This document shows, in pieces, positions 22,097 through 34,579 of a DNA stretch of 64,000 nt. The translations under genes and the position numbers were made by a program. Every line of letters starts with the position of its first letter. Position 1 is the stretch's first letter. The stretch covers positions 672,001 through 736,000 of the forward strand of contig CAWEMM010000012.1 of assembly GCA_963810095.1 (NCBI GenBank), read 5' to 3'. Under the pieces are notes generated by a model. The model did not search any database. It was not told the DNA's origin and saw nothing but the letters and a program-made list of their open reading frames with translations. This DNA comes from an uncultured Chloroflexia bacterium. GTDB taxonomy: Bacteria > Chloroflexota > Anaerolineae > CG2-30-64-16.

Positions 22097-23364
22097 CTAG
22101 CGTAACACCGGGATTGTGGCGTTGGCAAATGGCATGACGCCAATGCGCGCGCCGGATGGCAGGCGGGCCAGCGCCTCGTCCACGGCCTGCTGGAGCGAAG
22201 GGGCGGGGTTCAGCAGCAGGCGCTCGGCCAGGCTGCGGTCCATGTCTGACACGAACGTAAGGCGGACGCGGGCCGCGTCGCGTGCGATCTGCCACGCCTT
22301 GTGCGGGCCGATCCGGTAACCCTCCGCCGCATAGCGGTCGAGCACCTGCTCGTGCGTCGTGAAGCCGCCGTCGAGCATCCAGCGCTCGTAGGCTGCGCTG
22401 CCCGTGCCTTCCCCGCAGGCCGCGGCCAGGATCACTGCGCCGCTCAGAGCGGGAACCAGCCGGGTCACCAGGGTGGCGTGCGCGAGGGCCTTTTGCGCCT
22501 GGTACAGGTTGATGTCCTTCGGATGGCCGCCGGGCGACACGATGACCAGGTCGAACGGGCGGCTGACTTCCACCGCGTAGATGGCGCGCAGCAGGGGGAT
22601 GCCCGCCTGCATCACGTCGACCGGGCGCCCGGCCAGGACGTGCGCGATCTGCTTGTGGTCATTCAGGATCGCGTTGAGCGCGTAGTCCACCCCGATCAGC
22701 CGCCCGATCTCTTCGACATCCTGCCGGCAGGGGTTGTCCGCGTAGGAGTTGATCTCGGCGCCGGCCGCGGTCATCATGGCATGGTTCGTGTTGATGGTGG
22801 CCTTCGCCGTCAGGCCCACCGCCGCGCTCTTGACCCCGCCCGAGAAGCCCATGAACTGGTGCGGCTCGATGTTCCCCACGACCACCCGCAGGTCCGCCTC
22901 CCACCAGCGCCGGTTGACGCTGACGGGCGTGCCGCGGGCCGTCTCGCCGAGGTAGATCAGCTCGCCGTCCGCATTGCAGTCGTGGCTGTACACGGGGTAG
23001 CGGGCGAGGATCTCGGCCGGCAGGATGGCCGGGAATTCCTCGGGCGGCATGGGGGCGTGGGTGCCGGTCGCCACCAGCAGCGTGATGTTCTCGGGGAGGA
23101 ACCCGAGCCCTTCGAGCCGGGCGAGCAAGGGCGGCAGAAGGTAGCGGTGGGGGACGGGCCGGGTCTTGTCGTTAACCGCGACGACAGCCCTCCGCCCTCG
23201 GTTCGTGGGCAGGGGCGCGGCGTCCAGGGCCGCCTCGACTGCCGCCAACGGATCGGGCGAGGGCGCGGCCTCGCGGGGCGCGAGCAACTCCACCCGGCGT
23301 CCAGCGCGGCGGGCAGGTCGAACTCGACAAATCCTTTCCCGTAGGGAAGCTGGTAGCGGGTCAA
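22097..23364 (-). CDS. larA: LarA-family nickel-pincer 2-hydroxy-acid racemase (frameshift near 23295)
   Basis: LPYGKG, NDKTRPVP, ATGTH, HD, EPHQFMGFSGGVKS, GGHPKDINLYQAQKAL, GPHKA. Confidence 0.85.
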
Positions 23365-23371
23365 CGGCGCC

Positions 23372-24485
23372 TCATGCAAACAGCCGGATCAGCAGCAGGC
23401 TAAACAGCGCCAGGCAGCCGCCCACGGCAAAGCCGAGCGCGAGCGGCTTGAGCCCGGTGCGCCGGATGCTCGCGGCGTTGGTGCTCAGCCCGATGGCCGA
23501 GAGGGCGAGCAGGATGCAGAGCTTCGTCACCTCGTCCAGCAGCTTCAGCACGTTGGCGGCGGCTACCAGGCTGCCCGGGTCGTTCACGTTGACCGGTGTG
23601 AAGCCGAGCGCGTTGCCGAGCGACCGGACCAGGCTCATGCCGACGAAGCCGAGCACGAACCAAGGCACGATCTTGCCGATCGACAGCTTGACCGACGCAT
23701 CCCGCTTCTGCTGCGCCCGGGCGTACACCAGCCCGATGCCGAGGATCAGCGGGGCCATGAGCGTGTTGCGCACGAGCTTGACCACCGTCGCAACGTCGCG
23801 TGCCGCGTCGCTGAACGCCGCGCCCGCGGCCACCACCTGCGACGTGTCGAGGATCGCAGTGCCGGCCCACAGCCCGAAGATCCGGTCGCTCATGCCCACC
23901 AGGTAGCCGAACGTGGGGTAGAGCAGCACGGCCAGCGTGCCGAAGAAGGTGATGGTGGCGACCGCATAACTCACATCCTCGTCCTCGGCCTCGATGACCG
24001 GGGCCGTCGCAATGATGGCGGAGTTGCCGCAGATGGCGGTGCCGACGCCGATCAGCGCGGCCAAGCCGGGGGCGGATACGGAGGGCGCGCCCCAGCAGGT
24101 AGGCGAGCGACAGGGCAAAAGCCACGCACGCGAGCACCAGCAGCAGCGCAGACCCGCCGATGTTGATCACGTCCTGGAAGCTGAGCCGCACGCCCAGCAG
24201 GATAATGCCAAAGCGCAGGATGCGGGTCAGAGCGAACTTGATGCCCGGCTCGAAGCGGGCGGAAAACCCGATCGCGTTGCGGACGAAGAACCCGAGCAGC
24301 ACCGCGATGAAGACTTCGCTCACCGCCCGAGCGATCTCGGGCGAGGGGATCAGCCCGTGCAGGTAGCGCGCGATGAGCGCCACGGCCAGCACCAGGAACA
24401 GGCCCGGCAGGGCAGGGCGCAGCTCCGCGCCGATCTTGCGGAGCTCGGCAACAAGTGGATTGACGTGCGTTGTAGGGGCGATCAT
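23372..24485 (-). CDS. YeiH/UPF0324 putative sulfate/sulfite exporter (TauZ/SuyZ-like; frameshift near 24075)
   Basis: LRFGIILLG, GTAICGNSAI.A.AP, FGLWAGTAILDTSQVVAAG, VVKLVRN, VPWFVLGF. Confidence 0.85.
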
Positions 24486-24496
24486 GGCAGCTTCCC

Positions 24497-24561
24497 GACC
24501 TTCGGGGTTTCGACCGCGAGCAACCTGACCGGGTCAGGCGCTCGGTGAAACCCCGAAGGTC
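24497..24561. repeat. Long hairpin, GACCTTCGG...CCGAAGGTC family
   Basis: Imperfect palindrome related to 7206-7239. Confidence 0.55.
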
Positions 24562-31674: not shown

Positions 31675-31788
31675 GTGCCTTTCCCTCCCTGGGTGGTGTT
31701 GAGATCGCGTCGTGGGGCCCGTGCGCAGCACGCCGCCTCATGACAGGAGTTGACTTACGACAGGCGTTGACCTACGACAGCTGTTGAC

Positions 31789-33142
31789 TTACGACAGGCG
31801 CAGCACGGGCAGGTCGAGCAGCCGCGCCAGCGCCAGCAGGGCGTCCAGGTGGTCGCCGTAGGTCAGGGAGATGTGGTGGTCCAGCCCTTCGGTCATGATG
31901 GTGTCGAAGCACCTCTTGGGCCGGGCGGTCGAACCGGATGCACGCCGGACGTGCCCGTGTAGCTCATCGGCGCGTGCTGCATTTCGCCCGCCGCCACGAC
32001 CAGCCGGTACTCGCCCGTGGCCTGGCTCAGGCGGGCGAGGGTGACGCGGCCCGGCTTCAGCGGGAACTCCATCAGGAGCGGCTTCTTGCGGTTCGAGTGG
32101 ACCGTCGTGCGGGGCCGCAAGTCGGGATCGGCCATCGAGAGCGGCGCGAGCCCGCAGTGCCACAGCACCGCCTCGTCCCGCTCCAGGTCCCAGCCGACCA
32201 TGTCGGTCCCAAAGGCGGGCTCGCCGCTCAAACCCTGGAGAATCAGCCCCGTGACCGTGCCGTTCACGTCGGCCTCGCACGAGCACGGCGTCATCTCGTC
32301 GGTCAGCAGCGACATCGCGCCGCACGCGGCGCCGCCCAGCTCGGTGAAGAACTCGGGCCAGCAGCGCACCGCCAGGCCCCGAAAAGGCGTTTTCGTCGGC
32401 CAGCCGCCCCAGCGTGACGTACGCGCCGAGCGTGTTGCGCAGCGGCTCCTGCTCCAGCTCGTCCAGGCCGTCCACCCGCTCGCTGCAGGTTCGCCAGCAC
32501 CGGGTCTACCGCGCTGACCGCCGCGCTCCGGGCGCCGTCGAACACTTCGGCCAGCCCGCGCTGCACCACCTGCACGCCCAGCCGGGCCGCCAGCGCATCG
32601 CCGTCATACGTGCACGGCTCGAAGCCGTCCGGGTTGAGCCCGAACCGCCCGATCCGGGCGCTCTTGAGGCGTGCGCCGCACCCGGCCCGCTTGTGCCAGC
32701 GTGAGCAGCTTCTGCATCGCCTGCGCGGTCTTCCGGCTCGGCGTAGACGTACTCATAGCTGAACCCGGCCCGGCGCAGCGCGTGCGCCGCCAGGTTGATG
32801 CCGCAGAACGAGTTCAGCCGCAGCCGGCCCCCGGTGCGCTCTTCGGGCAGCGCCCACAGCAGCAGTGGCGCGCCGGGCACGGTGCGGGCCAGGTCGACGA
32901 CCATGGTGCTGTCGGCGAACGAGGCCTGGAACGCGAGCAGCAGGTCGACCGGCTCGGACAGCAGCTCGGCCGGCCGCCGCCCGCACGCCGTCCAGGTCCA
33001 TCACGAGGTCGGCCGGACCGTGCACCACGCAGCCGGCCTCGTCGAGCCGGGCGCGCATGCGGGCCATCATTTCGGCCGCCAGGGGGACGTCGAAGGTGGG
33101 ACGGGCAATCGGAATGAAGCCGATGTGCAGCGTTGGTTTCAC
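31789..33142 (-). CDS. L-fucose-isomerase-family protein, probable SQ isomerase (SqvD/SftI-like); frameshifted
   Basis: [51 protein letters not shown] overlaps the ROK stop. Confidence 0.78.
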
Positions 33143-34490
33143 GGTTGGGTTCCTTGTCGGTAGAAGAATGCGTCGAGGGCGAGCGCGGCCGCACCGATGA
33201 CGCCCACCTTGCGGCCAAACGCCGTGGTGGAGAGGGTCACCCGCTCGCCCAGGCCGGCGAACGAGCGCCGGCGCATGGTCTCTTCGATGCGGGGCAGCAT
33301 CAGGTCGGCCCCGGCGGCGAACAGGCCGCCCAGGATGATCATGTCGGGGTTCACCAGGTTGACGAGGTTCGCCAGCGTCGTGCCCAGGTGGAAGGCCCGC
33401 TCGTCGAGCAGGGCGAGCGCGTCGCGGTCGCCCGCCGCGCCGCATCGAACACCGCATCGATGGCGCCACCGGGGCTGAGTGCGGCGTCGGCGGCAGCGCC
33501 TGGGCCAGGATCGAGCCGGGCGAGCGGCGCTGCGAGCACGGTGGCCTGCCGCACGATCTCCCCTTCGGACACCAACGTTTCGAGGCAGCCGGTGTTACCG
33601 CAGCGGCACGGCGCCCCGCCGGCAGGGATGACGGTCGTGTGCCCGATTTCGCCCGCGCCGTACTGCGTTCCCCGGTAGAACTCGCCGCCGATGACGAAGC
33701 CCGCGCCCACGCCGACCCGGCTGTAGACGAACGCCAGCATGTTCACGTCGCGGCCCGCGCCGAACATGGACTCGGCCAGGGCCATCGCGCGCACGTTGTT
33801 GTCGACCATGACCGGGCGGCCGGTGATCTCGGTCAGGATGTCGCCGACCGGGCACGTTGCGCCAGCCGAGGCTCGGGCGCGAGCACGTTGACGCCGGTGT
33901 GCGGGTCGGTGAGGCCGGACGCACCGACGCCGATGCCGACCAGGCCGGTCGCGGCAGCCGCCCGACTCGTCGAGCGCGGCGTCGGCGATGTCTGCGGCCA
34001 TGCGCAGCAGTTGCTCGGGCGACGACGCGCCGTCCTCGGGCTGGTGCAGCGATGCGGTAGGCCTGCAGCTCGCCAAACAGGTCGGTCACGCCCACGTGGA
34101 CCGTGTCGACGCCGATGTGGATGCCCACGGCGCAGCGTGCGTCGGGGATCAGGCGGACCAGGGTGGGGGGCGGCCGGCGCCCTTGCGCTCGACGTTCGAG
34201 CGCTCGACGGCCGTGCCTTCGACGTTCGAGCGCTCGAAGGGGAGCGCTCGCCTTCAGCAGGCTCCTTGCCCGCTTCCTCGACGATGCCCTGTTCCAGCAG
34301 TTGCGTGACGAGGTTGGTGATGGTCGTGGACGACAAGGCCGGTGAGGCGGGCCATGTCGACCCGGGAGATGGGGCCGCAGCGCAGCAGCGTCGAAAGGAT
34401 CGCGTGCAGGTTATGTTCTTTGACGTCAGAAATCGACCGGCCCCGGGGGAGGACGGTGCTATTAAGGGCGAGGGGATGGTGGAGCTTCAT
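33139..34490 (-). CDS. ROK family transcriptional repressor (frameshifted)
   Basis: N-terminal HTH (GPISRVDMARLTGL), DNNVRAMALAE, GAGEIGH, CRCGNTGCLE. Confidence 0.88.
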
Positions 34491-34517
34491 TGGTCGCGCC
34501 TGATCACCCGGGAGGAA

Positions 34518-34579
34518 TTAATTAATCAAGAGTAGAAATAATATAACGTGAGTATAGGTCGTCGGCGGGCGTTTGTCAA
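34518..34579 (-). promoter_or_regulatory. Sigma70 promoter with AT-rich ROK-type operator
   Basis: TTGACA (34574-79)-17 bp-TATACT (34551-56) on minus strand; TTAATT-N12-AAATAA just downstream. Confidence 0.7.

Follow-up and report, generated by a model that had tools for sequence, protein, structure and literature searches.

Can a single bacterium, on its own, degrade glycosides of sulfoquinovose (SQ) completely to pyruvate and sulfite? SQ, a plant sulfosugar, is made on a gigaton scale, and in textbook schemes its sulfur becomes inorganic again only through the work of two organisms. The question is raised by a locus in a 64-kb stretch of DNA from an uncultured Chloroflexia bacterium (contig CAWEMM010000012.1; the whole stretch, with about 66% G+C and no N, is called the window below). 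An initial annotation had described this locus as joining the sulfofructose (SF) transaldolase pathway of SQ cleavage to SuyAB, the (R)-sulfolactate sulfo-lyase. Our analysis indicates that it is probably an extended SF-transaldolase operon, predicted to convert SQ glycosides to pyruvate and sulfite within one cell, and for the core of this pathway the gene content argues more strongly still. The outline first proposed, with import of SQ glycosides, their splitting by an SF transaldolase and desulfonation by SuyAB in the same cell, is supported by the transaldolase, SqgA and SuyB matches described below. It had left uncovered the oxidation of sulfolactaldehyde (SLA), a mismatch between (S)- and (R)-sulfolactate, and the role of the LarA protein of the locus; for these steps we propose candidate enzymes.

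A probable minus-strand operon for sulfoquinovose breakdown

Genes were called from Pfam matches on stop-to-stop fragments, from NCBIfam, and by mapping homologues from other genomes onto the window; features of the locus given below by their window positions are on the minus strand. By these means every gene named in the initial annotation was recovered on that strand between 34579 and 22097, and its six peptide motifs were all located there at the expected positions. Read in the direction of transcription, a promoter-like site is followed by genes for a ROK regulator, an isomerase, a solute-binding protein, two permeases, a transaldolase, a Gfo/Idh/MocA protein, SuyA-SuyB, a YeiH-family exporter and LarA. 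Downstream of LarA, past 22097, an amidase-like gene, an alpha/beta hydrolase gene, a gene for a tungsten-type aldehyde:ferredoxin oxidoreductase (AOR) and a MoaD/ThiS-like gene follow tightly packed on the same strand, and the operon probably extends beyond 22097, to about 18011. A plot of third-position GC on the minus strand contains one long coding run from about 34.5 kb to about 18 kb, with frame switches every few hundred bases.

In the pathway that we propose, a ROK repressor would control one long minus-strand transcript and an ATP-binding cassette (ABC) system would import SQ glycosides, from which SqgA, an NAD-dependent enzyme of glycoside hydrolase family GH188, would release SQ. 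An SftI-like isomerase would then make SF, and the SF transaldolase would pass C1-C3 to glyceraldehyde-3-phosphate, leaving (S)-SLA. The tungsten-type AOR with its MoaD-like partner would oxidise SLA to (S)-sulfolactate, a LarAH5-family nickel-pincer enzyme would racemise (S)- to (R)-sulfolactate, a fused SuyAB would cleave the latter to pyruvate and sulfite, and the YeiH-family protein would export the sulfur anion. The protein families, and the conservation of the cluster in other Chloroflexota, are read directly from sequence; everything assigned beyond family identity draws on gene neighbourhood.

The transaldolase, the sulfoquinovosidase and the isomerase

The transaldolase gene (about 27447-28111) had been assigned to the SF type (SftT/SqvA), and both halves of its product bear this out. 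Their best structural matches in the PDB are 8bc2, 8bc3 and 8bc4, the Bacillus megaterium SF transaldolase (BmSF-TAL), with 121.5 and 110.9 bits, as against 59.8 and 70.1 bits for the best canonical transaldolase. The motifs TTNPRH (28036->28019), VNPH (27931->27920) and GWKE (27705->27694) are present, and the Schiff-base lysine lies in NFVIKLP. Alignment places TTNPRH, SVEVNPH and SPFIGWKE in the window protein and in all six SF-type orthologues from Chloroflexota, whereas the three canonical-type proteins compared (from loci L002, L010 and L012, described below) read TTNP(S/T)H and SPFVGRLD and have no GWKE. NCBIfam returned no SftT-specific match, and its TalC/FSA model fell below its cut-off.

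The Gfo/Idh/MocA protein (26215 to about 27440, the start being approximate) is predicted to be a GH188 NAD-dependent sulfoquinovosidase, SqgA. It matches 8zn9 with 179.5, 8qc3 (ArSqgA) with 174.7 and 8qc2 (FlSqgA) with 170.8 bits, and the next structure scores 60.9. The last two of these named structures are SqgA sulfoquinovosidases that founded GH188, with catalytic and sulfonate-binding residues named in the text available (PMC10755693), and 8zn9 was reported in 2025, in work on marine sulfoquinovosidases (PMC12780224). Alignment to 8qc3, from which the numbering offset was derived, shows that all eight ArSqgA residues compared are kept: Lys107, Tyr136, Arg166, Leu170, Lys172, Glu189, His193 and His321. 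Of these, Arg166 lies in the motif EHRFPF (26856->26839) and the Glu189/His193 pair in EKCCH (26781->26767). The protein is 56% identical to its orthologue in locus L011. We also considered it as an SLA or sulfolactate dehydrogenase and rejected this, since its PDB scores and conserved residues are clearly SqgA-like. A GH31 enzyme as the glycosidase of the window was likewise rejected; none is present, although four of the related loci (L001, L006, L007 and L008) do have one.

For the isomerase (about 31789-33142, both ends approximate; fucose-isomerase fold, with GGRLRLNS at 32832->32809), the SftI model NF048012 is the only NCBIfam match, with 146 and 38 bits on fragments, and a Pfam Fucose_iso_C match is weak. 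A PDB search with an isomerase fragment found no solved relative. Whole orthologues from L001, L006 and L007 score 296-300 bits over the full SftI model, the cut-off of which is 700, and we therefore call the enzyme a predicted distant relative of SftI/SqvD, the SQ isomerase.

A predicted fused SuyAB sulfo-lyase

Both SuyA and SuyB had been reported for this locus, and both are present, but as one protein and not as two. A single gene (24577-26086) appears to encode a fused SuyA-SuyB of about 502 aa, interrupted at the junction by a 1-nt insertion (an extra G) near 25808; homologues at 96-98% identity are single whole chains of 497-502 aa, and close homologues of 497-504 aa carry SAF and GD_AH domains in one chain. 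The SuyB part matches Pfam GD_AH_second and GD_AH_C, and the SuyA part is 74% identical to the SuyA of L001, which has the SAF domain. Separate suyA and suyB genes are found in L001, L003, L005, L006, L008, L031 and L032.

The SuyB part is 64-83% identical to SuyB in all 80 loci returned by the genome survey described below. In particular, it is 64-68% identical to SuyB from two loci, in Halomonas (L037) and Bacillus (L032), where the canonical set of sulfolactate genes is complete, and 66-67% identical to Desulfovibrio homologues. These two loci have the classical layout of SuyA, SuyB, TctABC, a 2-hydroxyacid dehydrogenase (2-Hacid_dh) and an Ldh_2 protein whose best NCBIfam match is L-sulfolactate dehydrogenase. 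Because of this high identity to SuyB in loci of the classical layout (the Chromohalobacter scheme), we call the window enzyme SuyAB, a predicted (R)-sulfolactate sulfo-lyase; the assignment is by relation to SuyB of sulfolactate loci and not to a characterised SuyB directly. The best 120 protein matches to SuyB span 79-100% identity, and 66 of them carry the JGI automatic name '(2R)-sulfolactate sulfo-lyase subunit beta'. One protein from an NCBI record named 'MAG: Anaerolineae bacterium' is 98% identical.

The cluster recurs in other Chloroflexota

The initial annotation had proposed a survey of synteny in Chloroflexota metagenome-assembled genomes (MAGs). We scanned GTDB representatives (one genome per species) with a SuyB alignment and retained the best 80 of at least 600 matches as SuyB-anchored loci, all of which were searched with protein pieces from the window and 16 of which were annotated with Pfam. 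The cluster is kept in six of the 80: an SF-type transaldolase and SuyAB occur together in L001, L004, L006, L007, L008 and L011, all from Chloroflexota MAGs. Five of these also have the SftI-like isomerase and the ABC system, and mostly the ROK gene, and fully syntenic loci were found only in Chloroflexota MAGs. Together with the 98% identical SuyB of an Anaerolineae MAG, this fits the initial guess that the DNA comes from a member of the Chloroflexota. In all six, suyAB shares its strand with the operon and has the sulfoquinovosidase or transaldolase gene on one side and the remaining operon genes on the other.

The glycosidase varies from locus to locus. GH31 is found in L001, L006, L007 and L008; L011 shares GH188 with the window, and L004 has GH4. 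This GH4 (NAD/Mn-dependent) glycosidase occupies the GH31/GH188 slot directly upstream of SuyAB both there (L004:8180-9574) and in L005 (L005:8172-9566), with alpha-galactosidase as its best NCBIfam match, below cut-off; it may be a third kind of sulfoquinovosidase. In addition, L005 (L005:406-12495, a Caldilineaceae MAG) encodes a binding protein and permeases that share 49-68% identity with their window counterparts, together with a pyrophosphate-type phosphofructokinase, a Cgl0159-like aldolase, GH4, SuyAB and LarA, and has no SF transaldolase or SftI. It looks like a kinase/aldolase route, similar to the sulfo-Embden-Meyerhof-Parnas (sulfo-EMP) pathway, joined to a SuyAB-LarA module.

Other combinations were seen outside Chloroflexota. 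In Verrucomicrobia (L002:6981-11987), Spirochaetales (L010:2429-7576) and Planctomycetales (L012:5719-12496) MAGs, SuyAB and LarA stand with a canonical-type FSA/TalC (GRLD) and an aldehyde dehydrogenase, to which L002 and L012 add a PIG-L deacetylase and a major facilitator superfamily (MFS) sugar transporter. Two Anaerolineae-type MAGs (L004:14807-18496 and L011:4043-7520) have a Cpn60/TCP1-like gene followed by one for a BNR/sortilin-repeat protein beside the sulfosugar genes.

A LarA homologue as candidate sulfolactate racemase

The sulfolactate derived from SQ is the (S) form and SuyAB takes the (R) form (PMC12421959 and PMC11193023, in the text available), so an inversion step is needed before SuyAB can act. 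The known organisms described in the accessible parts of three reports invert sulfolactate with two dehydrogenases, SlcC and ComC (PMC12421959, PMC11193023, PMC13436972). The window has instead an intact gene (22097-23293) for a LarA homologue of the LarAH5/Mar1 family, racemases with a nickel-pincer cofactor. It passes NF052595, 'nickel-dependent malate racemase, LarAH5 family', with 471.3 bits against a cut-off of 462, as do all six LarA copies tested. Its best PDB match is the malate racemase Mar2 (6d6z, 237 bits), and in the alignment to that structure it keeps the catalytic Asp, His, His and Lys and the cofactor-binding Arg, Lys and His. Indeed, all 12 of the SuyAB-linked LarA copies compared have these catalytic and cofactor residues along with an H-Q-F loop, which in Mar2 reads H-Y-K. 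Sulfolactate differs from malate in carrying a sulfonate in place of the distal carboxylate.

The genomic association of LarA with SuyAB points the same way. Of the 80 loci, 13 have LarA in the neighbourhood of SuyB and 32 have a ComC-type Ldh_2 there, without a single overlap; the other 35, many on short contigs, lack the two genes. This exclusion has a one-sided Fisher p of 6e-4, and for the 49 loci flanked by 5 kb or more on either side (LarA in 10, Ldh_2 in 25, both in none) it has a p of 2.4e-4; both values ignore kinship and overstate independence, because the LarA/Ldh_2 split tracks phylogeny. The MAGs holding the 13 LarA loci are named as Chloroflexota, Verrucomicrobia, Planctomycetales, Spirochaetales, Acidimicrobiales and deltaproteobacteria. 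Usually the LarA gene adjoins suyB, and it lies within about 200 bp of it in L001, L002, L005, L009, L010, L012 and L013. From this neighbourhood we favour, with some reserve, a role for LarA as the sulfolactate racemase. Among the papers and passages listed by our literature searches, we found none tying sulfolactate or sulfoquinovose to LarA or a nickel racemase.

A characterised member of the LarAH5 family is Mar1 of Desulfitobacterium hafniense; the window LarA passes the cut-off of this family and keeps its catalytic and cofactor-binding residues. Mar1 has a KM of 55 mM for L-malate, and its authors doubted that malate is the native substrate (PMC7583248, in the text available). Mar1 differs in having been assayed on carboxylates only, sulfolactate not being among the substrates named in that text, whereas the genomic partner of the window LarA is SuyAB.

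An aldehyde:ferredoxin oxidoreductase as candidate for sulfolactaldehyde oxidation

Neither Aldedh (PF00171) nor NAD_binding_2 (PF03446, YihU-type) was matched in the window fragments scanned or in the open reading frames (ORFs) of L001, L004, L006, L007, L008 and L011. The only aldehyde-oxidising candidate in the window is the tungsten-type AOR (18337-20267; Pfam AFOR_C, with NCBIfam PRK09849 on the N-terminal part). Its sequence is 67-73% identical to the AOR of L001 and 61-67% identical to that of L007; the L001 orthologue has both AFOR_N and AFOR_C and scores 379.5 bits with 1aor, its best PDB match, and 330.7 with 8c0z, which places it closest to the P. furiosus and A. aromaticum AORs. 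Directly after the AOR gene lies one for a putative partner, a MoaD/ThiS-like protein of 76 aa that ends in Gly-Gly (18011-18241; Pfam ThiS and translation).

This pair recurs in the related loci. Three of the six Chloroflexota loci have an AOR, in L001 9 bp after LarA, in L004 after the transaldolase, and in L007 after LarA and a Peptidase_M24-family gene, and in each the next gene is a small ThiS/MoaD-like ORF of 76-81 aa. The L004 ORF matches Pfam ThiS and has no similarity to that of the window at E <= 1e-4; we link the small proteins of the four loci because of Pfam ThiS, their position in all four, and the Gly-Gly end in the window, L001 and L007. Of the 13 LarA loci, five have an AOR (L001, L004, L007, L031 and L053), four others have an Aldedh (L002, L010, L012 and L013), and no locus has the two together. 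In L031 and L053, the AOR stands beside a YihU/DhpA-like gene, LarA and SuyAB.

The idea of an AOR for SLA is not new. In Desulfovibrio DF1, an AOR induced by 2,3-dihydroxypropane-1-sulfonate (DHPS) and co-encoded with DhpA and SlaB was named as a second candidate for SLA oxidation (Burrichter 2018; PMC6278857, in the text available), the same putative role as proposed here. A literature search with the name spelt 'aldehyde ferredoxin oxidoreductase', without the colon that Burrichter 2018 uses, returned no paper pairing AOR with sulfolactaldehyde. From gene neighbourhood, we tentatively suggest that the AOR of the window is the SLA oxidiser, a proposal that we hold with less assurance than that for LarA.

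Taken together, these assignments suggest a more general proposal, which we put forward as a possibility somewhat short of an even chance: LarAH5 enzymes now annotated as 'malate racemases' may be sulfolactate racemases that, with a tungsten AOR and SuyAB, form a pyridine-nucleotide-independent module leading from SLA through (S)- and (R)-sulfolactate to pyruvate and sulfite, which anaerobes of at least six phyla would have added to different sulfosugar or DHPS routes. If so, the LarA/AOR/SuyAB module replaces SlaB and the SlcC/ComC pair, and Mar1 gains its missing native substrate.

Two genes lie between LarA and the AOR in the window. One encodes an acetamidase/formamidase-family protein (21175-22143; Pfam FmdA_AmdA), for which the 80 loci contain no strong match and one weak match, in L057. 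The other encodes a frameshifted alpha/beta hydrolase (20282-21089; Pfam Hydrolase_4 on two overlapping fragments), which was not found in the 80 loci. In L007 (L007:13651-14751) and L008 (L008:13612-14733), a Peptidase_M24-like gene without an NCBIfam match follows LarA, where the window has these two genes in the slot 20282-22143. Just beyond the AOR/MoaD-like pair, the window encodes an MFS transporter (16485-18203, minus strand) and a small 2x[4Fe-4S] ferredoxin (16171-16395, plus strand), which could be an electron acceptor for the AOR.

Alternative explanations

A number of observations weigh against a complete single-cell pathway or against individual steps of it. The isomerase, as noted, falls far below the equivalog cut-off for SftI (about 300 against 700 bits); the solute-binding protein does not resemble any solved SQ-glycerol binder; the split between LarA and Ldh_2 follows phylogeny, with LarA in non-proteobacterial and deltaproteobacterial MAGs; and a Pfam scan of the 64-kb window revealed no larB, larC or larE. 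The AOR could be a bystander, for example in general aldehyde detoxification, with SLA oxidised by an unlinked NAD(P)-dependent dehydrogenase of the SlaB/GabD type. Indeed, L008 has the whole cluster, with LarA and SuyAB, and neither AOR nor Aldedh within 10 kb, and an unlinked SLA dehydrogenase is therefore possible there. The two intervening genes of the window, amidase-like and hydrolase, are unrelated to the pathway, and the L004 AOR shares just 30-32% identity with the window enzyme and thus belongs to a different AOR subfamily. Moreover, recombinant Desulfovibrio DF1 AOR failed to reduce benzyl viologen with SLA, whereas SlaB did show activity (PMC6278857, in the text available). That enzyme was made in E. 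coli, however, and may have lacked its tungsten cofactor. In addition, three operons of different arrangement include an AOR, each time with a MoaD-like gene after it; an AOR also recurs with DhpA-like, LarA and SuyAB genes in two further loci, and it excludes Aldedh among the LarA loci. We therefore consider a bystander AOR rather unlikely, and retain AOR as the tentative SLA oxidiser.

It is also conceivable that SQ is only half degraded, with SLA excreted or reduced and with SuyAB and LarA serving external sulfolactate in the style of a two-organism scheme. The locus has no SlaB or YihU gene, and two-tier breakdown is the rule in the characterised strains covered by the available text of two reports (PMC7491151, PMC13436972). 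A sulfolactate importer of the TctABC type, the mark of L037 and L032, is nevertheless absent from the window and from L001, L004, L006, L007, L008 and L011, suyAB sits within the operon on the same strand in all six of these Chloroflexota loci, and the co-encoded exporter is of a sulfite or sulfate type and not a sulfonate type. Half degradation thus appears improbable. Still less credible to us is that the pair of SuyAB-like enzyme and LarA acts on a carboxylate, as a malate, tartrate or sugar-acid racemase feeding a dehydratase of the UxaA/GarD type, and stands beside SQ genes incidentally. Pfam and NCBIfam do report only the galactarate/altronate dehydratase family for the SuyAB-like protein, the NCBIfam name of LarA is malate racemase, and one NCBI record labels a homologue D-galactarate dehydratase. 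Against these names stand the identity of the enzyme to SuyB of canonical sulfolactate loci and of Desulfovibrio, the sulfo-lyase name (automatic, as stated) on more than half of the listed homologues, the neighbouring sulfite or sulfate exporters (YeiH or TauE), and the high KM of Mar1 for malate (PMC7583248).

Finally, the locus might be a decaying remnant, with real frame changes and a dead pathway. Homologue mapping indeed places about 21 frame changes across the 16.5 kb from ROK through AOR: at least five in ROK, at least four in the isomerase, one in the binding protein, two in permease 1, one in permease 2, two in the transaldolase, three in SqgA, one each in SuyAB and YeiH, none in LarA and two in AOR. 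LarA and the SuyB part alone are free of them, and that the genes are so riddled counts against a working pathway; we take the changes to be assembly errors by assumption. However, frame breaks of this kind also split genes beyond the locus (those for DUF7088, ABC_transp_aux, GDPD, a type I restriction subunit and a second Gfo/Idh/MocA protein), each frame piece retains 50-86% identity to its orthologues and high third-position GC, and the SuyAB homologues at 96-98% identity are whole. The record of the window SuyB places it on a contig of 754,495 bases, which suggests a long-read assembly. Since genes elsewhere in the window are split alike and the pieces keep high identity to orthologues, we infer that the frame changes are 1-nt indel noise of a long-read assembly, and gene decay seems to us very improbable. 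Programmed frameshifting was rejected as well, the frame changes being spread all over the window.

Relation to known systems

The initial annotation knew of no description of this combination in the phylum, and here it does not stand. A 2022 review (PMC9594981, in the text available on 'Extended sulfoglycolytic pathways') reports SuyAB in SF-transaldolase (sulfo-TAL) clusters of Thermotogae and Chloroflexi and, citing Liu et al. 2020, takes such clusters to suggest complete use of the SQ carbon. Similarly, Frommeyer 2020 identified sulfo-TAL clusters in individual Chloroflexi genomes (PMC7491151, in the text available), and Kaur 2023 drew a Chloroflexi sqgA cluster. The clusters of the review thus share with the window both the phylum (Chloroflexi) and the idea, an SF-transaldolase route and SuyAB in one cluster. 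Its text on these clusters names SuyAB only, and it is with that text alone that LarA, AOR, GH188 and the fused SuyAB were compared. The window locus differs from the published kind in having GH188 and not GH31, a fused SuyAB, LarAH5 in place of SlcC/ComC, and AOR in place of SlaB.

The sulfo-TAL (sulfo-SFT) clusters of Bacillus aryabhattai SOS1 and B. megaterium DSM 1804 have an SQ isomerase and an SF transaldolase as in the window, with GWKE-type motifs in common with the solved B. megaterium enzyme. According to the text available (PMC7491151), they have GH31, an MFS importer, GntR, an NAD-dependent aldehyde dehydrogenase (SftD) and a TauE-type exporter, and sulfolactate is excreted; the window has GH188, an ABC importer, ROK and no Aldedh, and adds SuyAB, LarA, YeiH and AOR. 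In sulfolactate loci of the Chromohalobacter salexigens type (SuyAB, a tripartite tricarboxylate transporter (TTT), SlcC and ComC; PMC9594981 and PMC11193023, in the text available), inversion from (S) to (R) is likewise needed before cleavage, and the window SuyB is 64-67% identical to that of the two loci with this layout, L037 and L032. There, however, inversion takes two dehydrogenases and passes through sulfopyruvate, SuyA and SuyB are separate and sulfolactate is imported, whereas for the window we propose a single LarA, a fused SuyAB and a substrate made in the cell.

The tandem sulfofucolytic-sulfolactate sulfolyase pathway of Paracoccus wurundjeri joins sulfosugar cleavage to SuyAB in one organism and releases sulfite, and there, too, the SLA dehydrogenase is missing (PMC12421959, in the text available). 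It differs in its substrate, sulfofucose, in its Entner-Doudoroff-type chemistry, in racemisation by SlcC/ComC and in belonging to a proteobacterium. In the DHPS pathway of Desulfovibrio sp. DF1 (DhpA, SlaB, SuyAB), an AOR is co-encoded with sulfonate genes and SuyAB desulfonates, as in the window; this pathway starts from DHPS and has a proven NAD-dependent SlaB and an AOR without activity (PMC6278857, in the text available, where LarA is not mentioned). Three related deltaproteobacterial loci (L013, L031 and L053) have LarA beside SuyAB.

Loci of this kind imply that common, mostly uncultured Chloroflexota can mineralise SQ alone, which would alter the tally of sulfonate mineralisers in soils, sediments and sludge. 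Single-organism mineralisation of SQ in Chloroflexota is already published as a prediction. What is added here are candidate enzymes for the stereo-inversion of sulfolactate and for the oxidation of SLA, the latter being a gap in the Paracoccus sulfofucose study as well, and a plausible native substrate for the LarAH5/Mar1 family.

Regulator, promoter, importer and exporter

The first gene of the operon (33139-34490) encodes a ROK-family transcription regulator with an N-terminal winged helix, matched by Pfam ROK on two fragments, with partial best NCBIfam matches to Mlc and NagC. The ROK protein of L007, which has HTH_24, maps to 34445-33154 in six frame pieces, and the window protein starts with MKLHHPL at 34490. 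Just upstream of its start codon, in an intergenic gap, lies the sigma-70-like promoter TTGACA-17-TATACT that had been noted at first sight; we find it at 34579->34551 with 11 of 12 positions matched, and a terminator-like hairpin of the upstream gene precedes it at 34609->34593. Promoter-like sites between 17500 and 35500 number 2, against 1.4 +/- 1.2 in shuffles, a count that is not significant, so the site carries weight by its place between hairpin and start codon and not by number. The position is suggestive of a promoter for the operon.

For the importer, a family 1 ABC solute-binding protein with a Tat signal (30258-31674; Pfam SBP_bac_1, SBP_bac_8 and TAT_signal) is 63-77% identical to that of L001. 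Permease 1, which is MalF/UgpA-like (about 29210-30118; Pfam BPD_transp_1 and NCBIfam), is 70-86% identical to its L001 counterpart, and permease 2, which is MalG/UgpE-like (about 28249-29197; Pfam BPD_transp_1), is 82% identical. Pfam scans of the window fragments gave no ABC_tran match, and the locus has no ABC ATPase gene. In the PDB, the binding protein finds generic sugar binders, with Lmo0181 as the best, and no sulfoquinovosyl-glycerol binder is named among its 41 matches; we therefore claim no ligand for it. The presumed sulfite or sulfate exporter (23372-24485) matches Pfam Cons_hypoth698 and TIGR00698, 'YeiH family putative sulfate export transporter'. YeiH stands beside SuyAB in the window, L001, L007 and L008, with TauE in its stead in L004 and L011. 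The substrates of these transporters, and the regulation of the operon, are suggested by the genes around them.

Elsewhere in the window

Rfam and tRNA scans of the 64-kb window gave no matches. Upstream of the operon, a type I restriction-modification system occupies 39262-47275 on the minus strand, with HsdM at 39262-40629 and frameshifted pieces of HsdR at 44318-47275; inside it lies a toxin-antitoxin-like pair of a Gp49/HigB-like and a helix-turn-helix (HTH) protein (41275-41882). At 48057-51088 on the plus strand, an ORF with HTH_36 and an IstB-like ATPase, a DUF5681 protein and ORFs without a Pfam match follow one another, and G+C reaches 0.71 at 50-52 kb; this segment may be a mobile or phage-derived insert. 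A 1211-aa open frame at 2188-5820 (plus strand) has a third-position GC of 0.82 and no Pfam match at E <= 1e-5. Lastly, at 55001-56847 on the plus strand, a gene for a xylose-isomerase-like TIM-barrel protein is followed by the second, frameshifted Gfo/Idh/MocA gene, an arrangement that resembles the first two genes of L005 (AP_endonuc_2 and Gfo).

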